NCBI GenBank assembly: GCA_035995165.1
Contig: DASYKU010000112.1
Location: forward strand, 2,377 to 66,376
Length of the DNA: 64,000 bases
Origin: Mycobacteriales bacterium
GTDB taxonomy: Bacteria > Actinomycetota > Actinomycetes > Mycobacteriales > CADCTP01
Reading direction: 5' to 3'
In this document: one piece after another, positions 32,105 through 57,933 of the stretch
Position numbering within the stretch: position 1 is the stretch's first letter
Layout: each line of letters opens with the position of its first letter
Made by a program: the position numbers and the translations under genes
The notes under the pieces: generated by a model
Seen by the model: the letters and a program-made list of their open reading frames with translations, nothing else
Told to the model about the DNA's origin: nothing
The model's database searches: none

Positions 32105-32728
32105 TTCGTCGTGACGATCCCTCGCAGCTCCCGTTGGAGAGCTGAGATCAACGCCGCCGCGTTGCACAGATCGGCGTTCGTCAAGGACACCATCCGGCCA
32201 GCATGTCAGCCGTTGCTGCGAGGTGCCGTGGGTGCATGCCGCTGGGCGGCAGGCCGTGCTCGGGCGGCGCCCGACTTCCCAAGGCGCCCGCCCGGCGCCC
32301 GGCAACTCGGTAGTCGATGGGGCGTCGGCTCCAAGCCCTGTCGGAGCAGGCCGAAGAGCTCTGCCTGGTGGCACAGCTGATCACTCCGCCCCGGACACTG
32401 TTGATGGTCTGCTTCGCGACCTGGTCTCTGGACCGGTCACCGAGCAGGTCGCCGATTGATCGGCGACGGCCTGGCAGGGACCGCCATTACGGCCGTGCCG
32501 ACCTGCTCCGCGTACAGATCCCGCGGACTCAAACGCCCGCGGTCGGCATCGGTGATCGCCCGCGGACACGCCTGCGTCCAGAACCTCCGCCGCGGCCACT
32601 ACGAACTCGCCATCGACGTCCCAGCACACCTCCGCATCGCGGCCGCCTTCACCGAGCTCGCAGCCGCGGTCTGAGCGGCGTTCTCTATCGGGCTGAGCTC
32701 GCCGCATGCGCCCGAATGCAACAGTGCC
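32105..32728 (+). mobile_element. IS6-family element, remainder of the transposase gene (multiply frameshifted) plus right inverted repeat
   Basis: Fragments across three frames: ...VVTIPRSSRW...AFVKDTIRPA (FVDETY-like) ... AGRQAVLGRR ... PVTEQVAD ... RSRGLKRPRSASVIARGHACVQNLRRGHYELAIDVPAHLRIAAAFTELAAAV. The right IR tgcaacagtgcc ends at 32728 (reverse complement GGCACTGTTGCA). Confidence 0.65.
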
Positions 32729-32765
32729 GTCCCACCCGCCTGCTTGGCGCAAAGTCTGGTGGCGC

Positions 32766-32876
32766 TGACTGTCGGCCATGGCTCCGACGATCAGCAGGGG
32801 CTCGGCTCCGGTTCGTAGGTGCTTAGTCGGGAGGCCTCCGAGTTGTCCGCCGCCCTGGACAGCGAGATCATCTGGA
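32766..32876 (-). pseudogene. 3'-terminal remnant of a moaD/thiS-like gene (last ~35 codons; diglycine and stop lost)
   Basis: The minus-strand translation ...[36 protein letters not shown] aligns with the C-terminus ...[33 protein letters not shown] of the intact gene at 56145-56462. Confidence 0.6.
32773..32812. repeat. 40-bp direct repeat, copy A (39/40 identical to 56153-56192)
   Basis: cggccatggctccgacgatcagcaGgggctcggctccggt versus ...cagcaAggg... at 56153. Flanking sequence on both sides is only loosely similar. Confidence 0.9.
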
Positions 32877-41803: not shown

Positions 41804-43177
41804 GTGACTGGACCACGAGCGAGGCGCGTAGCCCCGCTGGCCCTCGCGCTGGCGGCCGCCCTCGTCTTGACGGCTTGTGGCTCGGACTCCAAGGACTCCA
41901 CGGAGTCCGGCGGGTCCGGGTCGGGCGACGTGGCGAAGGAGATCACCATCTGGTCGAACTCCAACGTGTTCTGGGACTGGCAGAAGGCCAACCTGGCACC
42001 GTTCACCCAGCAGACCGGGATCAAGGTGAACTACACCCAGATCCCCGACGCCAGCATCATCGACAAGACGGCGCTGGCGCAGCGCTCGAAGTCCGACGAG
42101 TTCGCGATGTACGAGGGCCCGACCTCGCTGATCGCGCAGGACGTCCAGCTCACCGGTGGCGGCACCGACCTCAAGCCGTACGTCGACAACACCTCGCTGA
42201 CCGGTTCCGACTTCAACTTCAGCGACTTCGCCAAGGGCGGCATCAAGGACTGCACGTTCAAGGGCACGCTGCACTGCCTGCCGGTGTTCGTCGACGGCGG
42301 CGTGCTGGCGGTGAACAAGAAGCTGCTGTCCCAGGCCGGCGTCACCAAGTCGCCCACGACCTGGGCCGAGACGATCGCGGCGGCTGACGCGGTGACCCAG
42401 AAGACCGGCACGCCCGGCTGGTGCACCCGGGGCAGCCAGGCCGGCGCGGCCATCGCCACCGCCAACCAGATGCTCAGCTACTACATCCCGTTCAACGCCA
42501 GCAACCAGGGCTTCTTCGTCGACCAGAACTACAAGTCCCTGCTCGACTCGCCCGGCGCGGTGCAGTGGGCGAACGACTACCAGCACCTGATGACCAAGGA
42601 CGCCCCCAAGGGCATCGGCACCTACACCCTGACCAACTGCCAGAACGACTTCGACCAGGGCAAGGTCGCCATGATGTGGGACGGCATAGTGGTGTTCAAC
42701 AAGAACGAGCTGAGCCCGGCGGCCGGGTCGCCGCTGGCCGGCAACGTCGACTTCGTCGAGCCGTCCTGCCCGGGCAGTGACCCGTGCGTCGCGACCGGTC
42801 CGTGGGGGATGTTCCTCAACCCGCGGGCGAGCAAGCCGCAGCAGGCCGCGGCCTGGAAGCTCATGCAGTACCTGTCCTCGCCGAAGGTGCTGACCGACCA
42901 GATCACGGCGACCGGCGTGCCGGCCCTGGCGGTCCGCAACTCGACCACCGAGCAGACCTTCCCGGGGGTCCCGGCCAGCGTGCTGACCGCGCTGAAGTGG
43001 GTCGGCGCGAACTCGGTGCCCAACCCGTTCCCGCCGTCGTCGGTGTTCAACGAGAGTCAGGACGCCTACCAGACGTCGATCTCCCAGATCGTCGCCGGCA
43101 AGGACGTCAACGCGGCCATGAAGGCCGCGGCCGACGGCCAGAACCAGGTGTTCAAGCAGGCCGGCCTGCAGAACTGA
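41804..43177 (+). CDS. carbohydrate ABC transporter substrate-binding lipoprotein (CUT1, family 1 SBP)
   Basis: ORF 41804..43177, GTG after ggaagagg. Signal peptide with lipobox LTAC. Confidence 0.88.
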   Translation: MTGPRARRVAPLALALAAALVLTACGSDSKDSTESGGSGSGDVAKEITIWSNSNVFWDWQKANLAPFTQQTGIKVNYTQIPDASIIDKTALAQRSKSDEFAMYEGPTSLIAQDVQLTGGGTDLKPYVDNTSLTGSDFNFSDFAKGGIKDCTFKGTLHCLPVFVDGGVLAVNKKLLSQAGVTKSPTTWAETIAAADAVTQKTGTPGWCTRGSQAGAAIATANQMLSYYIPFNASNQGFFVDQNYKSLLDSPGAVQWANDYQHLMTKDAPKGIGTYTLTNCQNDFDQGKVAMMWDGIVVFNKNELSPAAGSPLAGNVDFVEPSCPGSDPCVATGPWGMFLNPRASKPQQAAAWKLMQYLSSPKVLTDQITATGVPALAVRNSTTEQTFPGVPASVLTALKWVGANSVPNPFPPSSVFNESQDAYQTSISQIVAGKDVNAAMKAAADGQNQVFKQAGLQN

Positions 43178-43188
43178 GCGGAGCCCCG

Positions 43189-43227
43189 GCGGTGGCCGGC
43201 CGACGTGTCCCGTCGGCCGGTCACCGC
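43189..43227 (+). terminator. intercistronic hairpin, 16-bp stem with one G-U pair
   Basis: gcggtggccggccgac-gtgtccc-gtcggccggtcaccgc lies between the SBP and the first permease gene. Confidence 0.5.
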
Positions 43228-43262
43228 GCGTTCCGCCTTCCGCCGTCGAACAGGGGCAGCAC

Positions 43263-44225
43263 ATGAGCAACGACCTATCCGCCGACCCCGTCCCGCTGTC
43301 CCGCGGGGAGACGCGGGGCGAGCCCCGGCAGCGAGTGCGCGGGCCGGCCCGGGGTCTGCTGGCCCGCCTGGACCGGCACTTCTTCGCGCTGGCGGTGCTG
43401 CCCTCGTTCCTGGCTGTCTTCCTGGTCACGGTGCTGCCGTTCCTGGCCGGGCTGGGGCTGAGCTTCTCCAGCATCAGCAGCACGCACGACGGGATTTTCC
43501 CGCTCACCCTGCACAACTACAGCCGCATCGCCGGTGACGACCAGGCGAAGACCGTCCTGCGCAACACCTTCGAGTACGCCGGTGCCGCGGTGCTGCTCGA
43601 GGTCGTGCTCGGTGTCCTGCTGGCCGTGCTGCTGTCCCAGAAGAGCCGGATCATGCCGGGCTTCCGGGTGGTCTACTTGCTGCCGCTCACCGCGGCCAGC
43701 GTGGTCGCGGCGACGAGCTGGGGCGCGCTGCTGAATACCTCGCAGGGCTGGATCAACTACTGGCTCGGCCTGCTGCACCTGGGCCAGCCGAACTGGCTGG
43801 CCTCGACCAAGCTGGCGATGCCGTCGGTGGTCATCACCGAGCTGTGGAGCGGGGTGCCGGTGGTGGCCCTGCTGGTGCTGGCCGCGCTGCTCGGCGCGCC
43901 GCAGGACCCGATCGAGGCGGCCATGGTCGACGGGGCCACTGCCTGGCAGCGGTTCCGGTATGTCACGCTGCCGGCGGTCCGGCCGGTCATCGCGCTGGCC
44001 GCGCTGCTGCGGGTGGTGGCCGCGTTCCAGCAGTTCGCGCTGTTCCAGATCCTCACCGGCGGCGGCCCGGGACTGTCCACCACGGTGCTCAACTACTACG
44101 TCTACAAGCAGGCGTTTGCGTTCAACAACATCGGTTACGGGGCCGCGCTCGCCACCTTGATGGTCGGCCTGATGGCCATACCACTGGGGCTGCTGTTCGC
44201 CGCCTCGCGGAGGGGGCGGGCATGA
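43263..44225 (+). CDS. carbohydrate ABC transporter permease (MalF-like)
   Basis: ORF 43263..44225. Six TM helices. EAA loop ...DPIEAAMVDGATAWQRFRYVTLP. Confidence 0.9.
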   Translation: MSNDLSADPVPLSRGETRGEPRQRVRGPARGLLARLDRHFFALAVLPSFLAVFLVTVLPFLAGLGLSFSSISSTHDGIFPLTLHNYSRIAGDDQAKTVLRNTFEYAGAAVLLEVVLGVLLAVLLSQKSRIMPGFRVVYLLPLTAASVVAATSWGALLNTSQGWINYWLGLLHLGQPNWLASTKLAMPSVVITELWSGVPVVALLVLAALLGAPQDPIEAAMVDGATAWQRFRYVTLPAVRPVIALAALLRVVAAFQQFALFQILTGGGPGLSTTVLNYYVYKQAFAFNNIGYGAALATLMVGLMAIPLGLLFAASRRGRA

Positions 44226-45118
44226 CCGCGACGGATCGGGGCACGGCGGCGGTCCCGGCGGTGGCGGCGGCCCGGCGCCGACGCGGGCGGCGCGCGACCC
44301 AGCGGTCGCTGGCCGGCTCGATCGTGCTGTGGGTGCTGCTCGGGCTCGGGGCGGTGTTCATCCTGCTGCCGCTGGTGTGGATGCTGTCCACCGCGTTCAA
44401 GCAGCCGGACGACGCCTTCGCGGTGCCGCCGCACTGGCTGTCGAAGCCGACCGGGGCCAACTTCTCCGAGCTGCTCACCGGCGAGTTCCGCAAGTACGTG
44501 CTCAACTCACTGCTGGTCTCGGTGGTGACCACCGTGATCGCACTGGCCTTCGGGATCCCGGCCGGCTACGCGTTCGCCCGGACCCGGATCCGCGGCGGGA
44601 AGTTCATCCAGGCCTGGTTCGTGTTGGCCTACGTGATCCCACCGGTGATCTTCATCATCCCGCTCTACATCATCTACCAGCACGCGCACCTGCTGGACAG
44701 CTACACGGGGCTGGTGCTCGCGTACGAGACCGGGATCCTGCCGTTCACAGTCTGGTTGATGCGGGCGTACATGTCCGAGGTGCCGAGGGAGCTGGACGAG
44801 GCGGCCTGGATCGACGGCTGCTCGAAGCTGGGCGCGCTGTGGCGGGTGGTGCTGCCGACCGTGCTGCCGGGGATCACCACGGTCGGGCTGATGGTCGGGC
44901 TGTCGGCCTGGGGCGAGTACTTCGGGGCCGTGATCCTCACCGGCCCGAAGACGCAGACCGCGCCGGTGGCGGTCAACTCGTACGTCGGCCTGCTCAGCTC
45001 GGACTGGAGCAAGCTGGCCGCCGCCGGCGTGGTCGTCATCGTGCCCGCGCTGCTGGCCACCGTCTTCGTGCAGCGCGGGTTCGCCCGGGGGCTGTCCTTC
45101 GGCGCCGTCAAGCAGTGA
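44222..45118 (+). CDS. carbohydrate ABC transporter permease (MalG-like)
   Basis: C-terminal 298 aa of ORF 43844..45118. ATG at 44222 (ATGA overlap). Loop ...ELDEAAWIDGCSKLGALWRVVLP. No ATPase gene is present in the locus. Confidence 0.9.
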   Translation: MTATDRGTAAVPAVAAARRRRGRRATQRSLAGSIVLWVLLGLGAVFILLPLVWMLSTAFKQPDDAFAVPPHWLSKPTGANFSELLTGEFRKYVLNSLLVSVVTTVIALAFGIPAGYAFARTRIRGGKFIQAWFVLAYVIPPVIFIIPLYIIYQHAHLLDSYTGLVLAYETGILPFTVWLMRAYMSEVPRELDEAAWIDGCSKLGALWRVVLPTVLPGITTVGLMVGLSAWGEYFGAVILTGPKTQTAPVAVNSYVGLLSSDWSKLAAAGVVVIVPALLATVFVQRGFARGLSFGAVKQ

Positions 45119-46088
45119 GCAGCTCCGCGGCGAAGCGCAGCTGGGCGGCCCGCTGGAAGCCGCCGCCGCCCTCGTGCCCGTTGTACGGGTAGACCTCGAT
45201 CGCCGTCCGCGGGTGCGCCCACCGGTTGTACGCAGCGAACACCGTCGACGGCGGGCACACCGCGTCCATCAGCGCGACCGAGAACAGCGCCGGGGCGCTC
45301 GCCCGGGCGGCGAAGTGCACCCCGTCGAAGTACGACAGCACCTCGAAGGTGCGCTCCACCGCGTCCCGGTGGCCGGCCAGGTAGTGGGTGATCTCCACGT
45401 ACGGCCGGCTGTCGGTGATCTCGGTGGCCCGGCGCATGCAGGACAGGAACGGCACGTCCGGCATGGCCCCGAGCAGCCCGGGCACCAGCCCGGCCACCGC
45501 GACCGTGATGCCGCCGCCCTGGCTGCCGCCGGTGACGATCACCCGGTCCGGGTCCAGCCGCGGGTGCGCGCCGGCCACCTCGGTCGCCCGTACCGCGTCG
45601 GTGAACACCCGGCGGTAGAAGTAACTGTCGGGGGATTCGACGCCCATGGTCAGGAAGCCCGGCGCGTGCGGGCCGGTTGCCCCGGCGTTGTCCGGGGTGA
45701 CGCCGACGCTGTGGCCGGCGCTGCCCTGGCCGCGGGTGTCCACCACCAGGTGCGCGTAGCCGGCCGCGGCCCACAGCAGGTGGTCGTGCGGCAGCCCGCG
45801 GCCGCCCGCGTAGCCGATGAACTCGACCACCGTCGGCAGCGGTCGCTCGGTGCCGCGGGGGAGGACCAGCCAGGCCGCGACCCGGTCGCCGCCGAAGCCG
45901 GTGAACCGCACGTCGAGGACGTCGACCAGGGCCAGCCCGGTGTCCACCGGGACGAATTCCGGGGCCAGCTCGTGCTCTCGGGCCGCGCCCAGCGTGCCGG
46001 CCCAGAACTCGTCGAAGCCGGCCGGCGCGGGCAGCTCGGGGCGGAAGTCCCGCAGCTCCGGCAGCGGCAGGTCGAACTGGACGGCCAT
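45108..46088 (-). CDS. acetylxylan esterase / cephalosporin-C deacetylase (CE7, AXE1 family)
   Basis: ORF 45108..46088. Motifs RGQG, the nucleophile motif GGSQGG and C-terminal ...YPYNGHEGG. Its 3' end overlaps the permease 3' end by 11 nt. Confidence 0.88.
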   Translation of the reverse strand: MAVQFDLPLPELRDFRPELPAPAGFDEFWAGTLGAAREHELAPEFVPVDTGLALVDVLDVRFTGFGGDRVAAWLVLPRGTERPLPTVVEFIGYAGGRGLPHDHLLWAAAGYAHLVVDTRGQGSAGHSVGVTPDNAGATGPHAPGFLTMGVESPDSYFYRRVFTDAVRATEVAGAHPRLDPDRVIVTGGSQGGGITVAVAGLVPGLLGAMPDVPFLSCMRRATEITDSRPYVEITHYLAGHRDAVERTFEVLSYFDGVHFAARASAPALFSVALMDAVCPPSTVFAAYNRWAHPRTAIEVYPYNGHEGGGGFQRAAQLRFAAELLTA

Positions 46089-46100
46089 GTCCCACTCCTT

Positions 46101-46120
46101 GTTGACAGTTGACGGTCAAT
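46101..46120. promoter_or_regulatory. overlapping GTTGACAGT and palindromic GTTGAC-GG-TCAAT cores, candidate operator
   Basis: gttgacagttgacggtcaat lies in the 69-bp esterase/aldolase divergent gap. Confidence 0.5.
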
Positions 46121-46157
46121 CAGATTGGCTGGGACTCTACCCGCGCCGGGAGGTCTC

Positions 46158-47015
46158 GTGCCGGAACTCGTCGTCCCCGTCCTCACCCCGTTCGCCGGCG
46201 GCGGCATCGACGTCGCCGCGCTCGCCGCGCACTGCCGGTGGGTGGTCCAGGAGGGCGCTGCCGGCGTCATGCTCTTCGGCACCACCGGCGAGGGCCCGTC
46301 GATCAGCGTGCCGGAGAAGCTGGCCGCCGCCTCCGAGCTGGTCGACCTGCTGCCCGGGGTGCCGGTGATCGCCTCGGTCACCGAGACCGCGCTGCCGACG
46401 GCGCTGGAGTGCGTCCGCGGCTACGGCGAGCTGCCGCTGCGGGCGGTGCTGGTGCTGCCGCCGTACTACTTCCGGGAGGGGGCCGCCGACGGCGTCACCG
46501 CGTTCCTGGACCAGGTCGCGGCGGCCAGCGCGCACCCGGTGCTCGGCTACCACATCCCGAGCCTGGCCCCGCCGGTGCCGGCCGAGTGGGTGGCCGGCAG
46601 CACGCTGTGGGGCGCCAAGGACAGCGGCGGCGACCTGGCGTACACGCGGGCGCTGGTGGCGGCCGGCAAGACCGTCTACGTCGGGGCCGAGGCGGTCATC
46701 GCCGACGCGGTGGCGGCCGGCGCGGCCGGGGCCATCGCCGGGATGGCCAACCTGCTGCCCGGGCCGCTGGCCCGGCTGGTGGCCGCGGCCGGGGACGGCG
46801 ACCTGGCGACCGCGTACGCGCTGCGGGACGAGGTGCTGGCGGTGCAGCGGGCGGTGCTGGCGGCGGCGCCGGAGCTGGAGTTCATCACCGCGTTCAAGGA
46901 CCTGGCCGGGCAGCTGCACGGGCACCCGATGGGGGACGCCCGGCTGCCGCTGCGGCGCCGCCGGGACTACCTGACGCCATCGGTGACGGCGGCGCTGGCG
47001 GTCCCCGCGAGGTAG
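46158..47015 (+). CDS. DapA/NanA-family class I aldolase (dihydrodipicolinate synthase family)
   Basis: ORF 46125..47015. GTG at 46158 follows GGGAGG. Motifs GTTGEG, PPYY and the candidate Schiff-base Lys in WGAKDSGG. Confidence 0.8.
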   Translation: MPELVVPVLTPFAGGGIDVAALAAHCRWVVQEGAAGVMLFGTTGEGPSISVPEKLAAASELVDLLPGVPVIASVTETALPTALECVRGYGELPLRAVLVLPPYYFREGAADGVTAFLDQVAAASAHPVLGYHIPSLAPPVPAEWVAGSTLWGAKDSGGDLAYTRALVAAGKTVYVGAEAVIADAVAAGAAGAIAGMANLLPGPLARLVAAAGDGDLATAYALRDEVLAVQRAVLAAAPELEFITAFKDLAGQLHGHPMGDARLPLRRRRDYLTPSVTAALAVPAR

Positions 47016-48205
47016 GGCGCCAGCCCCTGGTTGGCCGGCAGCAGCTGCAGCAGGCACGCCTGCAGGGCGTGGTACGCGTCGTCCTTGCCGGCCCAGATCG
47101 TCGCCGCCGGCCGGCCGTCCTCGTCCAGCTCGTGCCACCAGCCGCCGTGCTCCCGGTCCAGGTAGGCGCGGTCGGCCAGGGCCCAGAACTCCGCGTACCG
47201 GTCGGCGTACGCGTCCTCGCCGGTGGCCGCGGCCAGCGCCCGGGCGGCGCCGATCCCCTCGGTCAGCGGCCAGTGCAGTCGCGCGGTGACCACCGGCCGG
47301 CCGGACCAGTCGGTGGTGTACGCGAACCCGTACCGGTCCAGGTCCCAGGCGTCGGCCACCGCCCGGTCGAACAGCGCGCGGGCCGCCGGCAGCAGCGCCG
47401 GGTCGCCGGTCTGCGCCCACACCTGCAGGACCAGCCGGGCCCACTCCAGCGCGTGCCCCGGCGTCGCCCCGTACGGGCGGAACGGGTCGGCCGGCCGGCC
47501 GGCGTTGTAGTCGGGCAGCGGGCGCCAGTCGGCGGTGAAGTGCTCGGGGATCCGCCAGCCGTTCGCCGCGGCGAAGCTGACCACCCGGGCGGTGATTTTG
47601 GCCGCCCGGTCCAGCCAGCGACGGTCGCCGGTGGCCGCGTGCGCGGCCAGGAACGCCTCCACCGCATGCATGTTCGCATTCACCCCGCGGTAGTCCTCCG
47701 GCACCGACCAGTCGGCCGGGTACGACTCGACGCACATGCGCTCGGCCGGCGCCCACAGGTGCTGGTCCACCACCTCGGTCGCCGCGTCGAGCAGGTCGGC
47801 GGCGGCGAACCCGGCGGTGGCCGCGGTGGCCGCGGCGAGCAGCACGAACGCGTGCGCGTAGGTGGTCTTGGTGCCGTCGGCGACCGTACTGCCGTCATCG
47901 GCGAGCGCCGCGTGCCAGCCGCCGTGCGCCCGGTCGGCGAACGGGCCGCGCAGCGCGGCCAGGCCGTGCTCGACCAGCTCGGCGTCCGGCCGGCCGAGCA
48001 GGCAGCCCAGGGAGAACGCGTAGGTCATCCGGGCGGTGGCGTAGAGCGGCTTGACGCCGGGCACCGGCCGGCCGGCAGTGTCCAGGCCGGTGAAGCCGCC
48101 GTGCTCCCGGTCGGCCGCGGACCGGGCGAAGTCGAGCAGCCGATGCGCCTCGGCCACCGCCCAGGCGCGGTGCTCCGGCCGGGCCAATGTGAAGCGCGCG
48201 TCCAC
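46967..48205 (-). CDS. AGE-family epimerase/isomerase (N-acylglucosamine 2-epimerase / YihS-like)
   Basis: ORF 46967..48205, GTG start. Alpha/alpha-barrel repeats ...YAHAFVLLA..., ...NANMHAVEAF..., ...PGHALEWARL..., ...HWPLTE.... Confidence 0.85.
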   Translation of the reverse strand: MDARFTLARPEHRAWAVAEAHRLLDFARSAADREHGGFTGLDTAGRPVPGVKPLYATARMTYAFSLGCLLGRPDAELVEHGLAALRGPFADRAHGGWHAALADDGSTVADGTKTTYAHAFVLLAAATAATAGFAAADLLDAATEVVDQHLWAPAERMCVESYPADWSVPEDYRGVNANMHAVEAFLAAHAATGDRRWLDRAAKITARVVSFAAANGWRIPEHFTADWRPLPDYNAGRPADPFRPYGATPGHALEWARLVLQVWAQTGDPALLPAARALFDRAVADAWDLDRYGFAYTTDWSGRPVVTARLHWPLTEGIGAARALAAATGEDAYADRYAEFWALADRAYLDREHGGWWHELDEDGRPAATIWAGKDDAYHALQACLLQLLPANQGLAPYLAGTASAAVTDGVR

Positions 48206-48206
48206 C

Positions 48207-49196
48207 TCAGGCGACCCGGACCACGGCCTTGACGCAGGCCGGGTCGCCGACCCGGTCCAGCGCCTCGCCGTACCGGTCCAGGTCCAGCCAGTGGGTGATG
48301 ATCCCGTCCGGGCGGACCCGGCCGGTGCGCAGCAGCGCCATCGCCCGATCGAAGCTGTGCCCCTGGGAGAACGAGCCCTTGATGGTCAGCTCGCGGCGGA
48401 ACACGTCGTACGGGTTGACGGTCAGCGTGGCGTCCTCGGCGGTCATGCCGTACACGAACAGGGTGCCGCCGATGCCGAGCAGGCCGAGGCCGGTCGCCAG
48501 CACCTCGGGGGCGCCGGTGGCGTCGACCACCACGTCGTACCCGTCCGGGGTGCGCAGGTCGCCGCCGATGGGCAGGATGCGGTCCGCTCCGAGGGCGGCG
48601 GCCAGCTCCAGCTTCGCCGGGGTGCGGCCGGCCACGGTGACCCGCGCCGCGCCGGACGCCCGCAGCAGCTGGGTGAGCAGCAGCCCGGTCGGCCCGGTGC
48701 CGAGCACCAGCACGTCGCTGCCGGCCTTGAGGTCGAGGACGTCCAGCCCGTGCACCACGCAGGCGGTCGGCTCGGCCAACAGGGCCGCCTCCAGGCTGAG
48801 GTCGCCGGCCGGATGGCACTTGCCGGCCGGGGCCAGCACGGCCTCGCCGAAGCCGCCCGGGTCGGTCACGCCGAGCGCCCGCATGCCGGCGCAGAACTGC
48901 GGCCGGGCCCGCAGGCACTGCGCGCAGTCGCCGCAGGCCACCATGTTGTCCAGCGCCACCGTCTCGCCGACCGTACGGCCGGTGACCCCGTCGCCCAGCG
49001 CGTCCACCACGCCGACGATCTCGTGCCCCGGAGTAAGCGGGTAGACCGGGCCGAACTGGCCGGCGTGCAGGTGCACGTCGGTGCCGCAAACCCCGCTGGC
49101 CAGCACCCGCAGCCGGACCTGACCGGGCCCCGGCTCCGGCAGTGGCACGTCGGCCAGCTCCCAGTGCCGCGGCCGGTCGTACACGATCGCCCTCAT
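48207..49196 (-). CDS. zinc-dependent alcohol/polyol dehydrogenase (MDR family)
   Basis: C-terminal 329 aa of ORF 48207..49877 starting MRAIVYD (ATGA overlap). Motifs GVCGTDVH, GHEIVG, the CGDCAQC structural-Zn motif and GTGPTG. Confidence 0.9.
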   Translation of the reverse strand: MRAIVYDRPRHWELADVPLPEPGPGQVRLRVLASGVCGTDVHLHAGQFGPVYPLTPGHEIVGVVDALGDGVTGRTVGETVALDNMVACGDCAQCLRARPQFCAGMRALGVTDPGGFGEAVLAPAGKCHPAGDLSLEAALLAEPTACVVHGLDVLDLKAGSDVLVLGTGPTGLLLTQLLRASGAARVTVAGRTPAKLELAAALGADRILPIGGDLRTPDGYDVVVDATGAPEVLATGLGLLGIGGTLFVYGMTAEDATLTVNPYDVFRRELTIKGSFSQGHSFDRAMALLRTGRVRPDGIITHWLDLDRYGEALDRVGDPACVKAVVRVA

Positions 49197-50182
49197 GTGA
49201 TCTCCACCCTCGTCTTCAAGCCCTCGCCGCGGCGGGCCGCGGCCAGTGCGTCCGCCGTCCGGGCCAGCGGGTACGCGGCGCCGTGCAGCAGCTGCACCGG
49301 CAGCCGGCCGGCGGCCAGCAGCCTGGCGGCCCGGCCGAAGCTGTGCCGAACCGAATTGACCCCGACCACGGTCAGCTCCCGGGCCACGATGTCGAACGGC
49401 TCGAACTCGAAGCTCGCGCCCGGCCCGCTCACCCCGAGCAGGCCGATCCGGGCGGTGCGGCGGGCGTACCGGAAGGCGTCGGCGATGGCCCGCGGGCTGC
49501 CGGTCGCGTCCACCAGCACGCCCCAGCCGCCCTGGTCCAGCTCCGCCGCTGCGGTGCCGGTACGCCGCGCCCCGAACGCCGCCGCGGTGGGCAGCCGGTC
49601 CCGGTTGCGGTCCACCACGTCCACCTCGGCCCCGGCCCGGTCCAGCAGCGCGGCGGTGAGCAGCCCGATCGGGCCGGCCCCGAACACCAGAGCCGGCTCG
49701 CCGAGCACCGGGCCGAGCCGGTCCAGGCCGTGCAGCACGCAGGACAGCGGCTCGACCAGGCTGCCCAGCTCGGGGATGAGGCCGTCGGGCAGCGGCTCGC
49801 AGCGGGCGCCGGTCACCGCGACGTACTCGGCCAGCGCGCCGGGGGCGGTGGTGCCGAGGCCGCCGCCGCGCAGGCACATGTTGGTCCAGCCGGCCCGGCA
49901 GCGGTCGCAGGCGTCGCAGTAGTCCATCGGGTCGACGGCGACCGCGGTGCCGACCGTGAGATCCCGGACGGCCCGGCCGACCGCGACCACGGTGCCGGTG
50001 AACTCGTGCCCGGGGATCACCGGGTAGCGAACAACGCCGTAGTCGCCGTCCAGCACGTGCAGGTCGGTGCCGCAGATCCCGCAGGTGTGCACCCGTACCA
50101 CCACCTGGTGGTCCAGCGGGGCCGGGTCGGGCAGCTCGGTGATCGCCAGCCTGCCGGGCGCGGCGACGACCGCAGCCTTCAC
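49193..50182 (-). CDS. zinc-dependent alcohol/polyol dehydrogenase (MDR family), second copy
   Basis: C-terminal 329 aa of ORF 49193..51277. GTG at 50182 (GTGA overlap). Motifs GICGTDLH, GHEFTG, CDACDRC and GAGPIG. Confidence 0.9.
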   Translation of the reverse strand: MKAAVVAAPGRLAITELPDPAPLDHQVVVRVHTCGICGTDLHVLDGDYGVVRYPVIPGHEFTGTVVAVGRAVRDLTVGTAVAVDPMDYCDACDRCRAGWTNMCLRGGGLGTTAPGALAEYVAVTGARCEPLPDGLIPELGSLVEPLSCVLHGLDRLGPVLGEPALVFGAGPIGLLTAALLDRAGAEVDVVDRNRDRLPTAAAFGARRTGTAAAELDQGGWGVLVDATGSPRAIADAFRYARRTARIGLLGVSGPGASFEFEPFDIVARELTVVGVNSVRHSFGRAARLLAAGRLPVQLLHGAAYPLARTADALAAARRGEGLKTRVEIT

Positions 50183-50874
50183 CGGGCCACCGCCGCAGTC
50201 CAGAAGTCCGCGAGGTCGGTGTCGGCGCCCAGCTCCTTGATCGCGGCGGCGGCCCGGCGGGGGTCGGGGTCGGCGAAGACGAGCGAGCCGGGGATCACCC
50301 CGTCGGCGCCGGCCCGCGCCAGCCGGGGGACGGTGTGCCGGCGGATGCCGCCGTCCACCACCAGGTCGCCGGTCCAGCCGGCGGCGGCCCGGGCGGCGGT
50401 CAGCGCGGTCACCCGCTCCGGGGCGGCCGGATCGAGGTCGCGGCCCTTCACGCCGGTCTCGGTGCCCATCACCAGCACCCGGTCCAGCGCGCCGAGCCGG
50501 TCGGCGGCGACGGGGACCGGCTCGTGCAGCTCCAGGCCGAGGCCGGCCGCGCAGCCGGTGTCCCGGATGCCGGCCAGGGTGGCGTCGACGTCCGGGCAGG
50601 GCGCGGACTGGACGGTGATCACGTCGGCGCCGGCGGCGGCGAACCGGGGCACCCAGAAGTCCGGGTCGGTGACGTTGAGGTGTACGTCCACGGTCCGCCC
50701 GGTCCGGCGCCGCAGGGCGGCGACCAGGTCGGGGCCGTAGAGCAGCTCGGCGACGTCGTGGCCGTCGAAGACGTCGACGTGAAAGCCGTCGACGAGATCG
50801 TCCACCAGGTCGACCGCCCGGCCCAGGTCGAGCTGGTCGGCCGACCAGAGCGACACGAACTGCTTCATCTCCAC
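50179..50874 (-). CDS. ribulose-phosphate 3-epimerase family protein
   Basis: ORF 50179..50874. Motifs SLWSAD, HVDVFDGH, DVHLNV, MGTETG and VVDGGI. Confidence 0.8.
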   Translation of the reverse strand: MEMKQFVSLWSADQLDLGRAVDLVDDLVDGFHVDVFDGHDVAELLYGPDLVAALRRRTGRTVDVHLNVTDPDFWVPRFAAAGADVITVQSAPCPDVDATLAGIRDTGCAAGLGLELHEPVPVAADRLGALDRVLVMGTETGVKGRDLDPAAPERVTALTAARAAAGWTGDLVVDGGIRRHTVPRLARAGADGVIPGSLVFADPDPRRAAAAIKELGADTDLADFWTAAVAR

Positions 50875-50924
50875 CGCCTCGTCGAGGTGCTTGCGGGCCG
50901 CCTCGGCACCATGACACCATCAAT

Positions 50925-50937
50925 GCAGTCTGTAAAC
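50925..50937. promoter_or_regulatory. GTTTACAGACTGC (on the minus strand), candidate operator
   Basis: gcagtctgtaaac lies in the 83-bp epimerase/ROK divergent gap. Confidence 0.4.
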
Positions 50938-50957
50938 AAAAAACTGTCAGGAGTCTC

Positions 50958-51884
50958 GTGGTTGCGGTCGGCGTGGACATCGGCGGCAGCAAGGTCGCCG
51001 CCGCCGCGCTGACCGGTCCGGCCCGCAGCTGGCGGGAGCACGGGCTGCGCCCGGACACGGCCACCACCGCCGGGGTGGTCGCCGCGATCCGCGCTGCCGC
51101 GCTCGCCGTGGCGGGCGGTGACCCCGTCGACGCGGTCGGGCTGTCGGTCGCCGGCTGGCTGTCCGCCGACCGCCGCCGGGTCGTGCACGCGGCCAACCTC
51201 GGCCTCCGCGACGTCCCGCTCCCCGACCTGGTCGCCGCCGCCCTCGACTGCCCGGTGGTGATGGAGAACGACGGCAACGCCGCCGCCGTCGCCGAAGCCG
51301 TCCGCGCCGCCGCCGACGCAGTGGCCGCCGGTCGTACGGGCGCCGGGACCGTGGTCGTGCTGGCGCTGGGAACCGGGGTGGGCGGCGGGGTGGTGCTGCC
51401 GGGCGGGACGGTGCTGACCGGGGACGGTGGGCTGGCCGGGGAGCTGGGGCACCTGCCGGTGCCGGGGGACGGCCGGCCGTGCGTGTGCGGCGGCCTGGAC
51501 TGCCTGGAGCTCTACGCGAGCGGCCCGGGGCTGGCGGCCGCGGCCGGTACCCCGGACGCGCGGGCGGCGGTCGCCGCGGCCGGACGGGGTGACCCCCGGG
51601 CGGCCGCGGCGCTGCGTGCCGCCGCGGCCGCCCTGGCGGCTGCCGTCCGCATCCTGCAGCCGGTGCTCGACCCGGCCCGGGTGGTGCTCGCCGGCAGCGT
51701 CGCCGAAGGCGCCGGACCGCCGCTGCGGGACGCGGTGACCGCCGCCCTGGCCGGCCCCGGCCCGCTGGCCGCGGTGGCCGCACCGCCGGAGATCTCGCTC
51801 AGCACCCTCGGCCCGTACGCCTGCGCGATCGGCGCAGCCGAGCTGGCCGCCGGCCGGAAGAGAAGAGGACTGCTCCGTGCCTGA
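50958..51884 (+). CDS. ROK-family sugar kinase (no HTH domain)
   Basis: ORF 50958..51884, GTG after caggag. Motifs GVDIGGSK, ENDGNAAA and the Zn motif GHLPV...CVCGGLDCLE. Confidence 0.85.
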   Translation: MVAVGVDIGGSKVAAAALTGPARSWREHGLRPDTATTAGVVAAIRAAALAVAGGDPVDAVGLSVAGWLSADRRRVVHAANLGLRDVPLPDLVAAALDCPVVMENDGNAAAVAEAVRAAADAVAAGRTGAGTVVVLALGTGVGGGVVLPGGTVLTGDGGLAGELGHLPVPGDGRPCVCGGLDCLELYASGPGLAAAAGTPDARAAVAAAGRGDPRAAAALRAAAAALAAAVRILQPVLDPARVVLAGSVAEGAGPPLRDAVTAALAGPGPLAAVAAPPEISLSTLGPYACAIGAAELAAGRKRRGLLRA

Positions 51885-54663: not shown

Positions 54664-55295
54664 GTCCTTGTCCCGGACCCCGGCGCGCCCGAAGCGAACC
54701 TGGTTCGCCTGGCGCAGGACGTACCGGTCCTCGACGATCATGACAACGAGGATTACCTCGCCTCCGTCTCCATGGCGCAGTACTGCAAGAACATCGGGAT
54801 CGCGAATCTGCTCTCCCAGATCGACTTCCGGCCCGGACCAGTGGGATCGGGGCCATTGGCGGCGCCGGCCAAGTTGCGCTGGGCGCCCGGCGCTACGGCC
54901 TGTACAGCTCTCCGGTGTCGATCCGCACGGCAAGCCACGACCTCCGGCACGTTGCTCGGGCGCAGGGGAGCCAACATCCGGCCGTGCCGCTCGACGTCGC
55001 GGACCGCGGCCAGATCGCTGCCTGTCCACCTGAGAATTCGCCCGCTTCGCCGAGGATCGTCAGGGTGTCTTCTCAGCGCGCTGGTCCCTCTCGGCCGCGG
55101 CATGTCCATCGTCGAGAACGAGTCGCACACCGAGACGCAGCGCCGCGCGGGCGTCGCACACGAGATTGCCCAACTCCTGTGGGAGCACGAGTTCACCGAG
55201 GTCCTGGTGAACCTTGACGGCTGCCGCGCTGCCGGGCCGGAGGTCGAGGCAGAGGCCGATCGGCTGGCTGGCGAGCTCCTTATCCGTTCGCCGCA
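54664..55295 (+). pseudogene. degenerate ImmA/IrrE-like (COG2856) metallopeptidase remnant
   Basis: Plus-strand fragments ...NEDYLASVSMAQYCKNIGIANLLSQIDF... and MSIVENESHTETQRRAGVAHEIAQLLWEH...EVEAEADRLAGELLIRSP. The HExxH motif has decayed to HEIAQ, the frames are broken between fragments, and there is no clean ORF. Confidence 0.35.
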
Positions 55296-55336
55296 CCGTC
55301 GTGGCCGGGCGCGCCGATTCGTGGAAGCTGTCCAGC

Positions 55337-56030
55337 TTAGGTCAGGTCCGACCCACAATGTGACGCGTGGTTGTCCGCAGCGGCGTACCGCTCGACGAGT
55401 GCACGGTCGGCGTCGTCGAGGTCGTGCAGGCGCAGGGCGGGGTGCCCGGCGTCGATGTCGAATATGGCCTGAACCTGCGGGTCGTCCCAGATGGTGGCCA
55501 TGGCTGTCTCCAGCGCATGATCTCGTCGAAGTCGAGCAGGGGTTCGGTGCGGTCATCGATGGTGTCGAGGAGGTCGGCGAGATCAGTCTCGGTGTTCAAG
55601 CGGAATGGGTCGCCGGTTACGCCGTGGTCGGACAGGAACTTGCGGGCGATCGACGCCTCGCCGGTGAACTCGGTCAGCAGACCCCGGGCGAACGGGGGCA
55701 CGTTGGTCAGAACCGCTGGACCCATCGTCAGATGCAGGGTGATGGTCAGGCCGCGGCCAGGGCTTTCCGTAACCGCCATTCGGCTTTGAGCTCGGGTGCG
55801 GTCGAAGGCGTTGGCAGCGGACAGCGCATCCCAGGCTCGGGTCGGGTCTACGCCGCGCAGGGCACCGGTCGAGATGATCAGCCGGGTGGGTCCTGACGTG
55901 TGGGCCGCAAGGATGGTGACGAAGAAGGGGTCGTCGCGGTAGAGCAGGCCGGCACCGCGGTCGCTGACCTCCCGCCGGACCGGGCTGTTGACTCGGCGTT
56001 GACTGACGAGGACGAGCGATGGTCGCCAGA
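55337..56030 (-). pseudogene. hypothetical gene, apparently disrupted (no upstream start codon; frame break near 55500)
   Basis: The minus-strand reading ...GAGLLYRDDPFFVTILAAHTSGPTRLIISTGALRGVDPTRAWDALSAANAFDR...MAVTESPGRGLTITLHL...LLDFDEIM continues in another frame as MATIWDDPQVQAIFDIDAGHPALRLHDLDDADRALVERY...* (stop at 55337). Confidence 0.3.
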
Positions 56031-56076: not shown

Positions 56077-56121
56077 TGGTCGGGGTGACAGGATTTGAAC
56101 CTGCGGCCTCTTCGTCCCGAA
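56077..56121 (-). tRNA. tRNA-Pro(CGG), 3' half only (anticodon loop to CCA); not a functional tRNA
   Basis: The reverse complement is TTCGGGA-CGAAG-AGGCC-GCAGG-TTCAAAT-CCTGT-CACCCCG-A-CCA. The anticodon loop reads CGG and the T-arm and 3' acceptor strand are intact. No matching 5' acceptor (CGGGGTG) or D-arm exists upstream. Confidence 0.75.
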
Positions 56122-56144
56122 TTATGGCGCGAAGTTCGGGGCCG

Positions 56145-56462
56145 CTAGCCGCCGGCCATGGCTCCGACGATCAGCAAGGGCTCGGCTCCGGTGCTGACCG
56201 CGTCCGGCAGCGGGGTGTCGGGAGACTCGTGGGACAGGTCTTCCTCGCAGGCGAAGACCCGGATGAAGGGCCGACGCTTCTTGGTGACGGAGTCCCGGAT
56301 CGTGCCGCGCAGCTTCGGGTACCGGGCCTCCAGCTCGTCCAAGACGGTCCGCTGGGTCGGCCGGCCTTGGACCCGGATCTCCAGCTCGCCGTCGATGCGG
56401 GCCACGGTCCGCAGGTGGGCCGGCAGGCGAACCCGGACGGCCGTCGTGTCCGGTGCGGTCAT
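56145..56462 (-). CDS. MoaD/ThiS-family ubiquitin-like (beta-grasp) protein ending in Gly-Gly
   Basis: C-terminal 105 aa of ORF 56145..57167 starting [17 protein letters not shown] and ending ...[16 protein letters not shown] overlap with the upstream BNR gene. Confidence 0.8.
56153..56192. repeat. 40-bp direct repeat, copy B (inside the 3' end of the moaD/thiS-like gene)
   Basis: 39/40 identical to 32773-32812, in the same orientation, 23,380 bp apart. Confidence 0.9.
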
Positions 56463-57574
56463 GGCAGGGTCTGGACTTCGACCGACAGCACGGCCGGGAG
56501 GTCCCGCACGATCGGTGCCCAGCTGTCCCCATCGTCGGCCGACGCGTAGACCTGGCCGCCGGTCGTGCCGAAATACACCCCGCACCGGTCCAGCGAGTCG
56601 ACGGCCATCGCGTCGCGCAGCACGTTCACGTAGCAGTTGCTCTGCGGCAGGCCCTGGGTGAGCGGCTCCCACTCGTTGCCGCCCGTGCGGCTGCGGTAGA
56701 CCCGGAGCCTGCCATCCGGCGGGAAGTGCTGCGAGTCGCTCTTGATGGGGACGACGTATACCGTGTCGGGCTCGTGCGGATGGACCGCGATCGGAAACCC
56801 GAAGTCGCTGGGCAGGTCGCCGCTGATCTCGTGCCATGACTCGCCGGCGTCGTCGCTGCGCATGACGTCCCAGTGCTTCTGCATGAACAGGACCTCCGGA
56901 CGGGACGGGTGTATCGCGATCCGGTGCACGCAGTGGCCGACCTCCGCGTCGGGGTCCGGGATGCCGTCGGAACGCAGGCCGCGGTTGATCGGCCGCCAGG
57001 TCACGCCGCCGTCGTCGGTTCGGAACGCGCCGGCCGCGGAGATCGCGACAAAGATCCGCTGCGGGTCGACTGGGTCCAGCACGATCGTGTGCAGGCACAT
57101 CCCGCCGGCGCCGGGCTGCCACGCCGGTCCCGAGCCGTGGCCGCGCAGCCCGGGCAGTTCCTGCCACTCGTGCCCGCCGTCCACCGAGCGGAACAAGGCC
57201 GCGTCCTCGACGCCGGCGTAGACCGTATCCGGATCGGTCCGCGACGGTTCAAGATGCCAGACGCGCGCGAATTCCCACGGATGTGGCGTCCCGTCGTACC
57301 ACTGGTGCGTGCCGGGGACGCCGTCGTACTCGAACCGGCTACCCACCTGCTCCCACGTCGTGCCGCCGTCGTCCGAGCGCTGGATGAGCTGGCCGAACCA
57401 GCCCGACGACTGCGATGCGTAGAGCCGGCCCGGGTCGGCCGGGGAGCCGGCGACGTGGTAGATCTCCCAGCCCGGGAAGAGAGGCCCGCTGACGTCCCAA
57501 CGCTCCCGTTCGGCGTCCGCCGTTAATACGAACGCGCCCTTGCGTGTGCCCACCAGCACCCGTACGCCGCTCAT
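56459..57574 (-). CDS. BNR/Asp-box repeat protein (sialidase-superfamily beta-propeller; no signal peptide seen)
   Basis: ORF 56459..57691. ATG at 57574 follows AAGGGAG. Six Asp-box-like motifs: [46 protein letters not shown]. Confidence 0.88.
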
Positions 57575-57933
57575 CTCGACTCCCTTCGCAGGTTCGGGAC
57601 CATAGCGCTGGCGACCGACATCGCGCCCATCCCGCCCGGTCGGGCTGACCGGCCCCGCCGCCGGCGCGGCCGCGTCCCGACGGCCGTCCAAATCGGCTGG
57701 GTCCGGCCGTCGAGGCGCAGGGTGACGCGGCGGCCGGCGTGTTGAATCCGGTGGGGTGGGTCGTCCGGCAGCACTCGGCGCCCGGTGGTGGGCCGACCGG
57801 GCGAGAGCCGGTTTGGGCGCGGAGCCGGGCGAGGTCGGCGGTGTTCACCGCGACGGCACCGACTTCGTCCAGCCACCATCACCGTGCCCGTTGCCGAGGG
57901 TGGATTCCTTCCCGGCCGCAGGACCTAACACGT

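Follow-up and report, generated by a model that had tools for sequence, protein, structure and literature searches.

The DNA analysed here, called the window below, is a stretch of 64,000 nucleotides on contig DASYKU010000112.1 of a Mycobacteriales bacterium (assembly GCA_035995165.1) and comes from a soil metagenome. On its minus strand lies a pair of genes. One encodes a 371-residue beta-propeller with Asp-box (BNR) repeats and the other, directly downstream and overlapping it, encodes a 105-residue beta-grasp protein that ends in Gly-Gly, which we call the small protein. The pair had been picked out in an earlier reading of the letters alone (the sequence-only reading), which knew of no described system that joins such a protein to a propeller. 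Our main result is that the two genes are held together across at least ten phyla.

Two overlapping genes in the window

The propeller gene begins with an ATG at 57574, codes down to 56462 and closes with a TGA stop at 56461..56459. The small gene begins at 56462, codes down to 56148 and closes with a TAG stop at 56147..56145, its product ending in ...IVGAMAGG (Table 1). This confirmed the ATGA overlap and the 105-residue beta-grasp protein with a ready-made Gly-Gly end that the sequence-only reading had described. A Shine-Dalgarno sequence precedes the propeller gene, and motifs of the GGAGG type occupy the equivalent position at most related loci. No Shine-Dalgarno-like sequence was found in the 30 nt preceding the ATG of the small gene. 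Because the small gene overlaps its neighbour and has no ribosome-binding site of its own, the small protein is most likely made by termination and reinitiation. The two genes are translated as a coupled unit. A search for a shared upstream regulatory motif recovered ribosome-binding sites alone.

Table 1. Positions in the window of the two genes, their overlap and their conserved sites (CDS, coding sequence; ORF, open reading frame; AF2, AlphaFold2)
Feature	Positions	Strand	Basis
Propeller CDS, 371 aa, cytoplasmic seven-bladed Asp-box (BNR) beta-propeller, 3B7F / YP_299179.1 family	56459..57574 including stop	minus	ORF, Pfam, PDB, AF2, Foldseek
Small-protein CDS, 105 aa, MoaD/CysO/SAMP1-like beta-grasp, ends GAMAGG	56145..56462 including stop	minus	ORF, AF2, Foldseek; weak profile matches below cut-off
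ATGA start/stop overlap (propeller TGA and small-gene ATG)	56459..56462	minus (plus strand reads 'tcat')	read from sequence
Shine-Dalgarno AAGGGAG, 5 nt before propeller ATG	57580..57586	minus	sequence
C-terminal Gly104-Gly105 codons	56148..56153	minus	sequence, alignment
Six Asp-box-like motifs	57353-57376, 57164-57187, 56996-57019, 56834-56857, 56669-56692, 56519-56542; span 56519..57376	minus	motif search
His162 codon, invariant; residue 2 of blade IV inner strand	57089..57091	minus	alignment and AF2 DSSP
His217 codon, invariant; residue 2 of blade V inner strand	56924..56926	minus	alignment and AF2 DSSP
His234 codon, invariant; blade V turn between strands B and C, predicted top face	56873..56875	minus	alignment and AF2 DSSP

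Conservation of the pairing

For this we scanned one genome per species with the propeller. At least 600 species-level genomes matched, and the best 80 loci were analysed. These came from Actinomycetota, Acidobacteriota, Gemmatimonadota, Planctomycetota, Verrucomicrobiota, Chloroflexota and Methylomirabilota, together with one Burkholderiales metagenome-assembled genome (MAG), one MAG labelled Firmicutes and Candidatus Elarobacter. Loci of Nitrospira moscoviensis and Actinopolymorpha were added by direct look-up, and the propeller-chosen set comprised 84 loci. The small gene lies directly downstream of the propeller gene in 83 of them, and the remaining locus is cut by a contig end. The overlap of 4 nt is kept in 78 of the 83 loci, and 77 of 81 complete small ORFs terminate in A-G-G-stop. 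In the reverse survey, metagenome contigs were picked through the small protein, and those with enough upstream DNA were taken as informative. All 76 informative loci have the propeller upstream on the same strand, within 250 nt in 74 cases. The pair is obligately linked in both survey directions, which bears out the dedicated, translationally coupled pair that had been proposed. The sequence-only reading had allowed that the pairing might be unique to this genome, or that the small protein might elsewhere stand beside canonical molybdopterin (Moa), thiamine (Thi) or cysteine (Cys) biosynthesis genes. The spread over phyla rules out the former, and genes of the latter kind were never adjacent in the surveyed loci. 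Across loci the pairwise distances of the two proteins are correlated (r = 0.28), a value reached by none of 500 permutations.

The small ORF runs past Gly-Gly in 4 of the 81 (L068:1200-1886; L020:11113-11463; L063; L079). The extension is 18 residues long in one homologue and two residues (AI, QI) in two others. In a Bryobacteraceae MAG the small ORF is fused in frame to a domain of ~130 residues that itself ends in ...ITGG and that we take, by eye, to be YjbR/MmcQ-like. Such extensions could be processing precursors, sequencing or assembly errors, or read-through.

More distant propellers were also found with partners of this kind. Propellers of 34-37% identity in Ralstonia solanacearum, Cupriavidus metallidurans, Burkholderia cenocepacia and Mitsuaria have a 90-residue MoaD/ThiS-family gene directly upstream, so the gene order is flipped relative to the window pair, and these partners end in ...QALSGG or ...QALTGG. 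A paralogue of 38% identity in Arthrobacter has a downstream partner that ends in ...QSVAGG and appears to resemble CysO closely in sequence. Because partners with a Gly-Gly end occur in these subfamilies in either order, the link between propeller and beta-grasp protein predates the split of the subfamilies and has survived a change of gene order.

Two plasmid-borne propellers that have no partner carry features of their own. The one on a plasmid of Streptomyces sp. NBC_00184 (L085, 6001-7089; 43% identity) itself ends in ...VRAATIGG, which may be coincidence. The one on a plasmid of Rhodobacter sp. CZR27 (L092, 589-4116; 41% identity) lies next to, and in divergent orientation from, egtB and egtD, genes of ergothioneine biosynthesis, a sulfur-insertion pathway; this arrangement was seen once and may be chance.

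Constraint, composition and expression

Identity among the 83 propellers spans 75-95% and averages 82%, and the value within a phylum (0.835) is only slightly above that between phyla (0.805-0.825). Across these 83 sequences from at least ten phyla, conservation reaches 97% or more at 183 of the 371 positions. Constraint on the small protein is weaker, with a mean identity of 70%. The GC content of the genes follows that of their flanks over a range of 0.55-0.75 (r = 0.87), so the genes have been resident long enough to adopt the composition of their hosts, and this argues against recent transfer as a general explanation. These comparisons indicate that the conservation of the propeller reflects extreme purifying selection rather than very recent spread.

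In four soil metatranscriptomes, 259-1505 assembled contigs each fell on the propeller gene at a likeness of at least 80%, and depth was approximately zero just outside the locus. The contigs on the gene show that propeller homologues are transcribed in soil.

The propeller: family, fold and conserved sites

Asp-box-like motifs were found at residues 67, 130, 186, 240, 295 and 345 of the propeller, spaced 50-63 residues apart. Four of the six are strict S-x-D-x-G-x-x-W motifs; in 2000 shuffled versions of the protein the mean was 0.08 motifs and the maximum 2. The sequence contains neither a hydrophobic N-terminal segment resembling a signal peptide nor a FRIP motif ([FY]R[IVL]P), which in GH33 sialidases supplies the first arginine of the catalytic triad. 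The sequence-only reading was correct on both the six motifs and the lack of a signal peptide.

In Pfam the propeller was matched best by Sortilin-Vps10 (2.5e-14) and also by BNR (4.1e-10). In the PDB it is a full-length homologue of 3B7F (E 2.7e-70; residues 4-366 on chain residues 23-389; ~35% identity), which has been described as the only representative of an uncharacterised family, a seven-bladed Asp-box propeller whose central tunnel is open and measures 9 x 11 Angstrom (PMC2716378). Structures were predicted as AF2 monomer models, blades were assigned from the DSSP string and structural searches were made with Foldseek. The propeller model has seven four-stranded blades, with a predicted local distance difference test (pLDDT) score of 82.8 and a predicted template-modelling (TM) score, pTM, of 0.86. 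It matched 3B7F with a TM score of 0.88; the next matches were GH74 xyloglucanases, DAIP, sortilin and Ycf48, and no GH33 structure was among the top 50. With full-length homology and seven blades bearing Asp-boxes, the propeller belongs to the 3B7F / YP_299179.1 family. The sequence-only reading had called it a sialidase-fold propeller, and the superposition on 3B7F, the seven blades and the lack of GH33 structures among the top 50 exclude that fold; the FRIP motif is missing as well.

The propeller scored below every curated glycosidase cut-off, with 74 bits against 175 for NCBIfam 'F510_1955 family glycosylhydrolase'. It also failed the Ycf48 models (18 bits against 27 for Pfam PSII_BNR; 17.4 against 326 for NCBIfam PRK13684), and its host organisms are non-phototrophs. 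The names we met in databases were 'exo-alpha-sialidase', 'WD40/YVTN/BNR-like repeat-containing protein', 'photosystem II stability/assembly factor-like' and, for the partner, 'MoaD/ThiS family protein'. The names 'exo-alpha-sialidase', 'glycosyl hydrolase' and 'photosystem II assembly factor-like' are unsupported by the sequence and fold of the family.

Five residues (His162, His217, His234, Gln232 and Arg320) are invariant in 21 propellers of 34-100% identity, partner-less paralogues included, and the three histidines are invariant also in A4. Placed on the model, the three histidines would together line the top entrance of the central channel and, being on neighbouring blades, might in principle coordinate a metal. 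Three top-face loops (87-101, 146-157 and 205-213) are long and highly conserved in this clade and have low model confidence, as is expected for a surface that orders upon binding. A conserved cysteine of the propeller as a site of conjugation or persulfide formation was rejected, since no cysteine is kept across clades.

The small protein: fold and tail

The AF2 model of the small protein is a beta-grasp fold (pLDDT 86.8) whose last residues average a pLDDT of 50, as a flexible tail. Foldseek placed SAMP1 (3PO0) on top, with a TM score of 0.85 by target length, and also returned CysO, MoaD and Urm1, all four at a probability of 1.00. The CysO chains 4N6E_B (from the CysO-BexX complex) and 3DWG_C gave TM scores of 0.76-0.79 by target length at 25-26% identity. 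A profile of the small-protein family run against the PDB had SAMP1 as its top match at a marginal E of 0.01. G104 and G105 are invariant in an alignment of 31 sequences that includes the distant Burkholderiales clade, and Gly-Gly is kept between partner families of ~27% identity. Its predicted fold and its C-terminus place the small protein in the MoaD/ThiS superfamily, where it forms a separate, divergent family. The sequence-only reading, which had seen in it a MoaD/ThiS-like beta-grasp with a ready-made Gly-Gly, is supported by this model and by the conserved terminus.

Residues 63-78 of the small protein (~56229-56276 of the window, minus strand) form a clade-specific motif, RRPFxRFFACE(E/Q)DLSH. 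Its cysteine, C72, does not vary among close homologues, is conserved to at least 90% across a wider alignment and is absent from the Burkholderiales-type partners.

A conserved pair without a conserved neighbourhood

All-against-all clustering of the ORFs within 10 kb of the pair at 82 loci yielded no third gene family in more than 14 of them, the commonest being an ABC ATPase, an extracytoplasmic function (ECF) sigma factor with DUF6596 and a YCII protein. Three Burkholderiales loci have the pair alone in common. No linkage to a known acceptor enzyme (MoaE, ThiG, CysM, TtuA and similar) was seen at the surveyed loci, and the propeller was the sole conserved neighbour of the small gene. In the window, Pfam scans covered 31.5-64 kb and the 0-31 kb part was read by eye from the gene call; the scans found no ThiF/MoeB, rhodanese, JAMM, Moa, Thi or Cys gene. 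The earlier statement that no E1, JAMM or cofactor-biosynthesis gene lies nearby was upheld both in the window and at ~160 other loci. PADLOC matched neither protein, and a role in anti-phage defence was dropped.

At ~12 of the 82 loci the pair sits among small genes such as the ECF sigma factor with DUF6596 and the YCII protein, and at the Nitrospira moscoviensis locus (L001, 1865-6456) the neighbours also include glyoxalase, PhnB-like, DUF1579, SnoaL and OsmC genes. We read these surroundings as a loose 'stress/detox' neighbourhood with no conserved operon.

The Pfam content of the window between 31.5 and 64 kb consists of catabolic enzymes, a sugar ABC transporter, a SpoIIE phosphatase, a B12-binding protein, an alpha/beta hydrolase and an IrrE/M78 fragment. 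A catabolic cluster of sialic-acid or amino-sugar type occupies 41804-51881, ~4-14 kb from the pair, with genes for a sugar ABC transporter, an AXE1 esterase, a DHDPS/NanA-like lyase, a GlcNAc 2-epimerase, a Zn-dependent alcohol dehydrogenase, a ribulose-phosphate 3-epimerase and a ROK kinase. This cluster is not conserved beside the propeller elsewhere and appears to be coincidental, yet it could mislead automatic annotation, since the propeller gene often carries the name 'exo-alpha-sialidase' in databases. The window is also a mosaic in GC content at third codon positions (GC3): genes at 0-25 and 33-54.6 kb have a GC3 of 0.93-0.99 and those at 25.4-32.7 and 54.7-64 kb one of 0.82-0.92, the pair itself being at 0.91-0.92.

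A short repeat and the question of mobility

The sequence-only reading had reported a second, decayed copy of the small gene at 32.8 kb and had taken the 3' end of the gene for the recombination target of a 23-kb island. A direct repeat does exist (32745-32812 and 56125-56192; 68 nt, 85% identical). The copy at 32.8 kb comprises the final 13 codons of a small gene, with the GG-stop mutated to D-S-Q, followed by ~20 nt of downstream non-coding DNA. Neither the remainder of the small gene nor a propeller remnant was found at 32.8 kb, and the window holds one pair, so what had been seen as a copy comes down to a remnant of 68 nt. Independent contigs from the source metagenome cross both junctions (32.8 and 56.1 kb), and for the junctions themselves an assembly artefact was rejected on this ground. 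The interval of 32.8-56.1 kb is a catabolic gene cluster and contains no integrase, recombinase or transposase; with a repeat this short and this diverged, the proposed recombination target was not borne out. The remnant may be what is left of an older copy, or a scar that an old rearrangement left behind. A candidate 'IS6-like transposase remnant' at 32456-32671 was dropped after Pfam and tblastn against plasmids gave no confirmation.

Directly downstream of the small gene, at ~56079-56121 on the minus strand, lies the 3' fragment of a tRNA-Pro, from the anticodon loop through CCA, which the sequence-only reading had not mentioned. ARAGORN and Rfam called no RNA gene anywhere in the 64-kb window. 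Transcripts and contigs of other organisms that carry tRNA-Pro align to exactly this stretch and then continue into the 5' half that is missing from the window. The fragment looks like the att-site remnant of an element that integrates into tRNA genes. Between the catabolic cluster and this fragment we observed a Peptidase_M78 (IrrE/ImmA-type) fragment at 55060-55300 (plus strand, E 3.6e-7) and an ORF at 55345-55779 (minus strand) with a weak phage DNA-packaging match below cut-off; both are probably debris of a prophage or integrative element. Adjacency to a tRNA gene was rejected as a general feature of the pair, because tRNA genes are not usually adjacent elsewhere.

The closest genome (92% nucleotide identity) shares 57651..56134 alone with the window and none of the flanks, so the pair sits in different surroundings even in near relatives. 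Among 72,556 plasmid records there was no homologue above 60% identity, and those found were paralogues below 45%, mostly on chromids. As to the suggestion that the pair is multi-copy or mobile, the pair is single-copy in the window, and the unshared flanks of the closest genome lend mobility some indirect support. It seems to us quite unlikely that either the pair or the small gene alone is a cassette that moves or occurs in several copies and that its 3' end is the attachment site of the 23-kb island. A repeat that extends into non-coding DNA and has both junctions spanned would fit such a cassette, but it has diverged, so the event was not recent, and the interval that it bounds lacks any integrase, recombinase or transposase. 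The tRNA-Pro and IrrE/M78 fragments adjoin the pair here, whereas tRNA genes do not usually do so elsewhere. Identity within phyla barely above that between phyla, and the bare segment shared with the nearest genome, would also suit a mobile cassette; set against these are the single pair in the window, gene GC that follows host GC and the lack of any close homologue in the plasmid records.

Comparison with known systems

In MoaD-MoaE and ThiS-ThiG the carrier tail enters the active site of the partner, and the genes are adjacent and often overlap. The pair resembles these systems in that a small Gly-Gly beta-grasp protein is encoded beside a single partner. By contrast, the partner here is a seven-bladed propeller, no molybdopterin or thiamine genes are nearby and the ThiS and MoaD profile scores are below cut-off. 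CysO is among the best structural matches of the small protein, which likens the pair to CysO-CysM of M. tuberculosis and to CysO-BexX of 2-thiosugar synthesis in Amycolatopsis; the partner enzymes there are CysM, an enzyme dependent on pyridoxal 5'-phosphate, and BexX, a ThiG-like enzyme, rather than a propeller. We know of no propeller that acts as a carrier partner. SAMP1 of Haloferax and Urm1 share the Gly-Gly end, and SAMP1 led both the Foldseek and the PDB-profile searches. However, these proteins are archaeal and eukaryotic, have many targets and are not encoded with a propeller, and the similarity in sequence is marginal (E 0.01). Members of the SAMP1 and Urm1 families act both as sulfur carriers and as protein modifiers.

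On the side of the propeller, PDB entry 3B7F (Reut_B4987 / YP_299179.1, Ralstonia eutropha JMP134) is alike over its full length, in its seven blades and in its Asp-boxes, but differs in sequence (~35% identity) and is a structural-genomics entry without an assigned function. The paper that analysed it mentions no beta-grasp partner (PMC2716378), and close Burkholderiales relatives of 3B7F have a partner gene with a Gly-Gly end upstream. Sortilin Vps10, Ycf48/HCF136 and DAIP are also Asp-box propellers, with PDB entries that contain bound peptides (sortilin, Ycf48) or a protein fragment (DAIP). Sortilin is an extracellular protein of ten blades and Ycf48 serves in photosystem II assembly; none of the three is paired with a ubiquitin-like protein. 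GH33 sialidases share the Asp-box repeats, but their fold is six-bladed, they carry FRIP and an arginine triad and they are as a rule secreted, whereas the propeller has seven blades and neither FRIP nor signal peptide.

In the open-access literature, including two surveys of beta-grasp proteins (PMC1779556, PMC1949818) and one of Asp-boxes (PMC2716378), we found no description of the pair and no function for it. Within that searchable literature, the statement that the pairing is not a described system was upheld. The logic of a carrier with a dedicated partner is familiar; the class of partner and the chemistry are unfamiliar.

Possible functions of the pair

The reading to which we incline, with a confidence that stays a little short of even, is a self-contained two-gene module in which a propeller of the 3B7F family has a dedicated MoaD/CysO/SAMP1-like carrier whose activated tail is delivered to a pocket of the propeller. 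The two proteins would form an equimolar complex. The Gly-Gly end would be adenylated, and probably thiocarboxylated, by a general E1 of the MoeB/MoeZ/ThiF type encoded elsewhere. The activated tail would be inserted into the pocket of the central channel on the top face, around His162, His217 and His234, which may bind a metal. In this pocket a sulfur or acyl group would be passed to a substrate, by analogy to MoaD-MoaE, ThiS-ThiG, CysO-CysM and CysO-BexX. The analysis shows the obligate linkage, the coupled translation, the invariant flexible Gly-Gly end and the strong constraint on a propeller with three invariant histidines; how the pair works is inferred. The carrier-like fold of the small protein, the conserved top-face loops, the peptides bound in the structures of sortilin and Ycf48, the correlated distances and the transcription in soil also speak for this reading. 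In Actinomycetota a single MoeZ encoded elsewhere serves several carriers, so the missing linked E1 is no objection. An invariant Gly-Gly, even where the partners are ~27% identical, is a hallmark of E1-type adenylating activation. It is possible, though more doubtful, that the pair represents a new class of enzyme dependent on a sulfur carrier or ubiquitin-like protein, in which a histidine-lined and possibly metal-binding propeller would use the thiocarboxylated (or adenylated) Gly-Gly of its own carrier to make a thio-metabolite or a metal-sulfur centre.

Several results weigh against the carrier module. The small protein is below the cut-offs of the profiles concerned, with 16.0 bits against 22.5 for Pfam ThiS PF02597, 23 against 60 for NCBIfam SAMP1 (8.9e-5, its best NCBIfam match) and 13.7 against 49.5 for moaD_arch. 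The clustering of the histidines was deduced from strand topology and not from model coordinates. No E1, rhodanese, JAMM or acceptor-pathway gene is linked at any of the ~160 other loci, which makes activation of the Gly-Gly pure inference. In a Nonomuraea paralogue the beta-grasp-like ORF downstream ends in ...VLPALA, the Gly-Gly being lost, and paralogous propellers of 37-44% identity on two Streptomyces plasmids and in Fuscovulum, Rhodobacter and Marivivens have no adjacent partner. The propeller can thus exist without Gly-Gly chemistry in cis.

The main rival to the carrier module is a non-covalent partnership, which we think rather unlikely; a modifier or a glycosidase is less likely still. 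In a non-covalent partnership the beta-grasp protein would be a structural or regulatory subunit or an assembly chaperone, and its tail would be a peptide ligand in the channel or on the top face, much as sortilin binds the C-terminus of neurotensin, with no adenylation or sulfur chemistry. Non-enzymatic relatives of the propeller have been solved as complexes of this kind (sortilin with neurotensin and PGRN peptides, Ycf48 with a D1 peptide, DAIP with a thermolysin fragment), the central tunnel of 3B7F is open at 9 x 11 Angstrom (PMC2716378) and the equimolar coupled translation suits a stable complex. The Nonomuraea neighbour without Gly-Gly and the lack of a linked E1 point the same way. 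However, A-G-G in 77 of 81 small ORFs, with G-G kept at ~27% identity, is the pattern of E1-activated carriers, every one of the closest structural matches is an activated carrier or modifier, and three invariant histidines suggest catalysis or metal binding beyond docking.

That the small protein is instead a modifier like SAMP, Urm1 or TtuB, conjugated to lysines, with the propeller as its main target or as an adaptor that selects targets, we regard as improbable. Its best structural match is SAMP1, Urm1 was matched too, SAMP1 led the NCBIfam matches although below cut-off, and the extension of 4 of the 81 homologues beyond Gly-Gly recalls modifier precursors. Those rare extensions may equally be sequencing or assembly errors or read-through, and the ~160 loci have no linked JAMM, other peptidase for deconjugation or processing, E2-like gene or E1. 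Strict 1:1 coupled translation with a single partner is ill suited to a modifier with many targets; because it is the pattern of MoaD-MoaE and ThiS-ThiG, a carrier is favoured over such a modifier. Very improbable, and the least likely of these readings, is the glycoside hydrolase that the label 'exo-alpha-sialidase / glycosyl hydrolase' implies, which would act on a carbohydrate and have the small gene as an unrelated neighbour. The Asp-box repeats, the distant similarity to GH74 and to the F510_1955 family and the sialic-acid-like cluster nearby could be taken that way, but the propeller has seven blades where GH33 has six, lacks FRIP and a signal peptide and is below every curated glycosidase cut-off. 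The cluster is unlinked to the pair at other loci, and the closest relative shares the pair alone. Linkage to the Gly-Gly protein is near-universal and so cannot be accidental.

Ubiquitin signalling has its evolutionary roots in sulfur-carrier and ubiquitin-like beta-grasp proteins, and to our knowledge each new carrier partner so far (MoaE, ThiG, CysM, TtuA, BexX) has revealed new sulfur biochemistry. The partner here is of a kind not known to be linked to such carriers, and the structure of 3B7F has been public since 2007 without a function. The compactness of the system, two genes, and its presence in genetically tractable genera (Burkholderia, Paraburkholderia, Ralstonia, Cupriavidus) make its function directly testable. 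The obligate pairing, a propeller with about half of its residues near-invariant across phyla, the occurrence in at least 600 species-level genomes and the abundance of homologues in soil metatranscriptomes together point to an important cytoplasmic function. If the small protein is a carrier and the propeller its enzyme, soil bacteria of at least ten phyla would keep the system nearly unaltered and express it actively.

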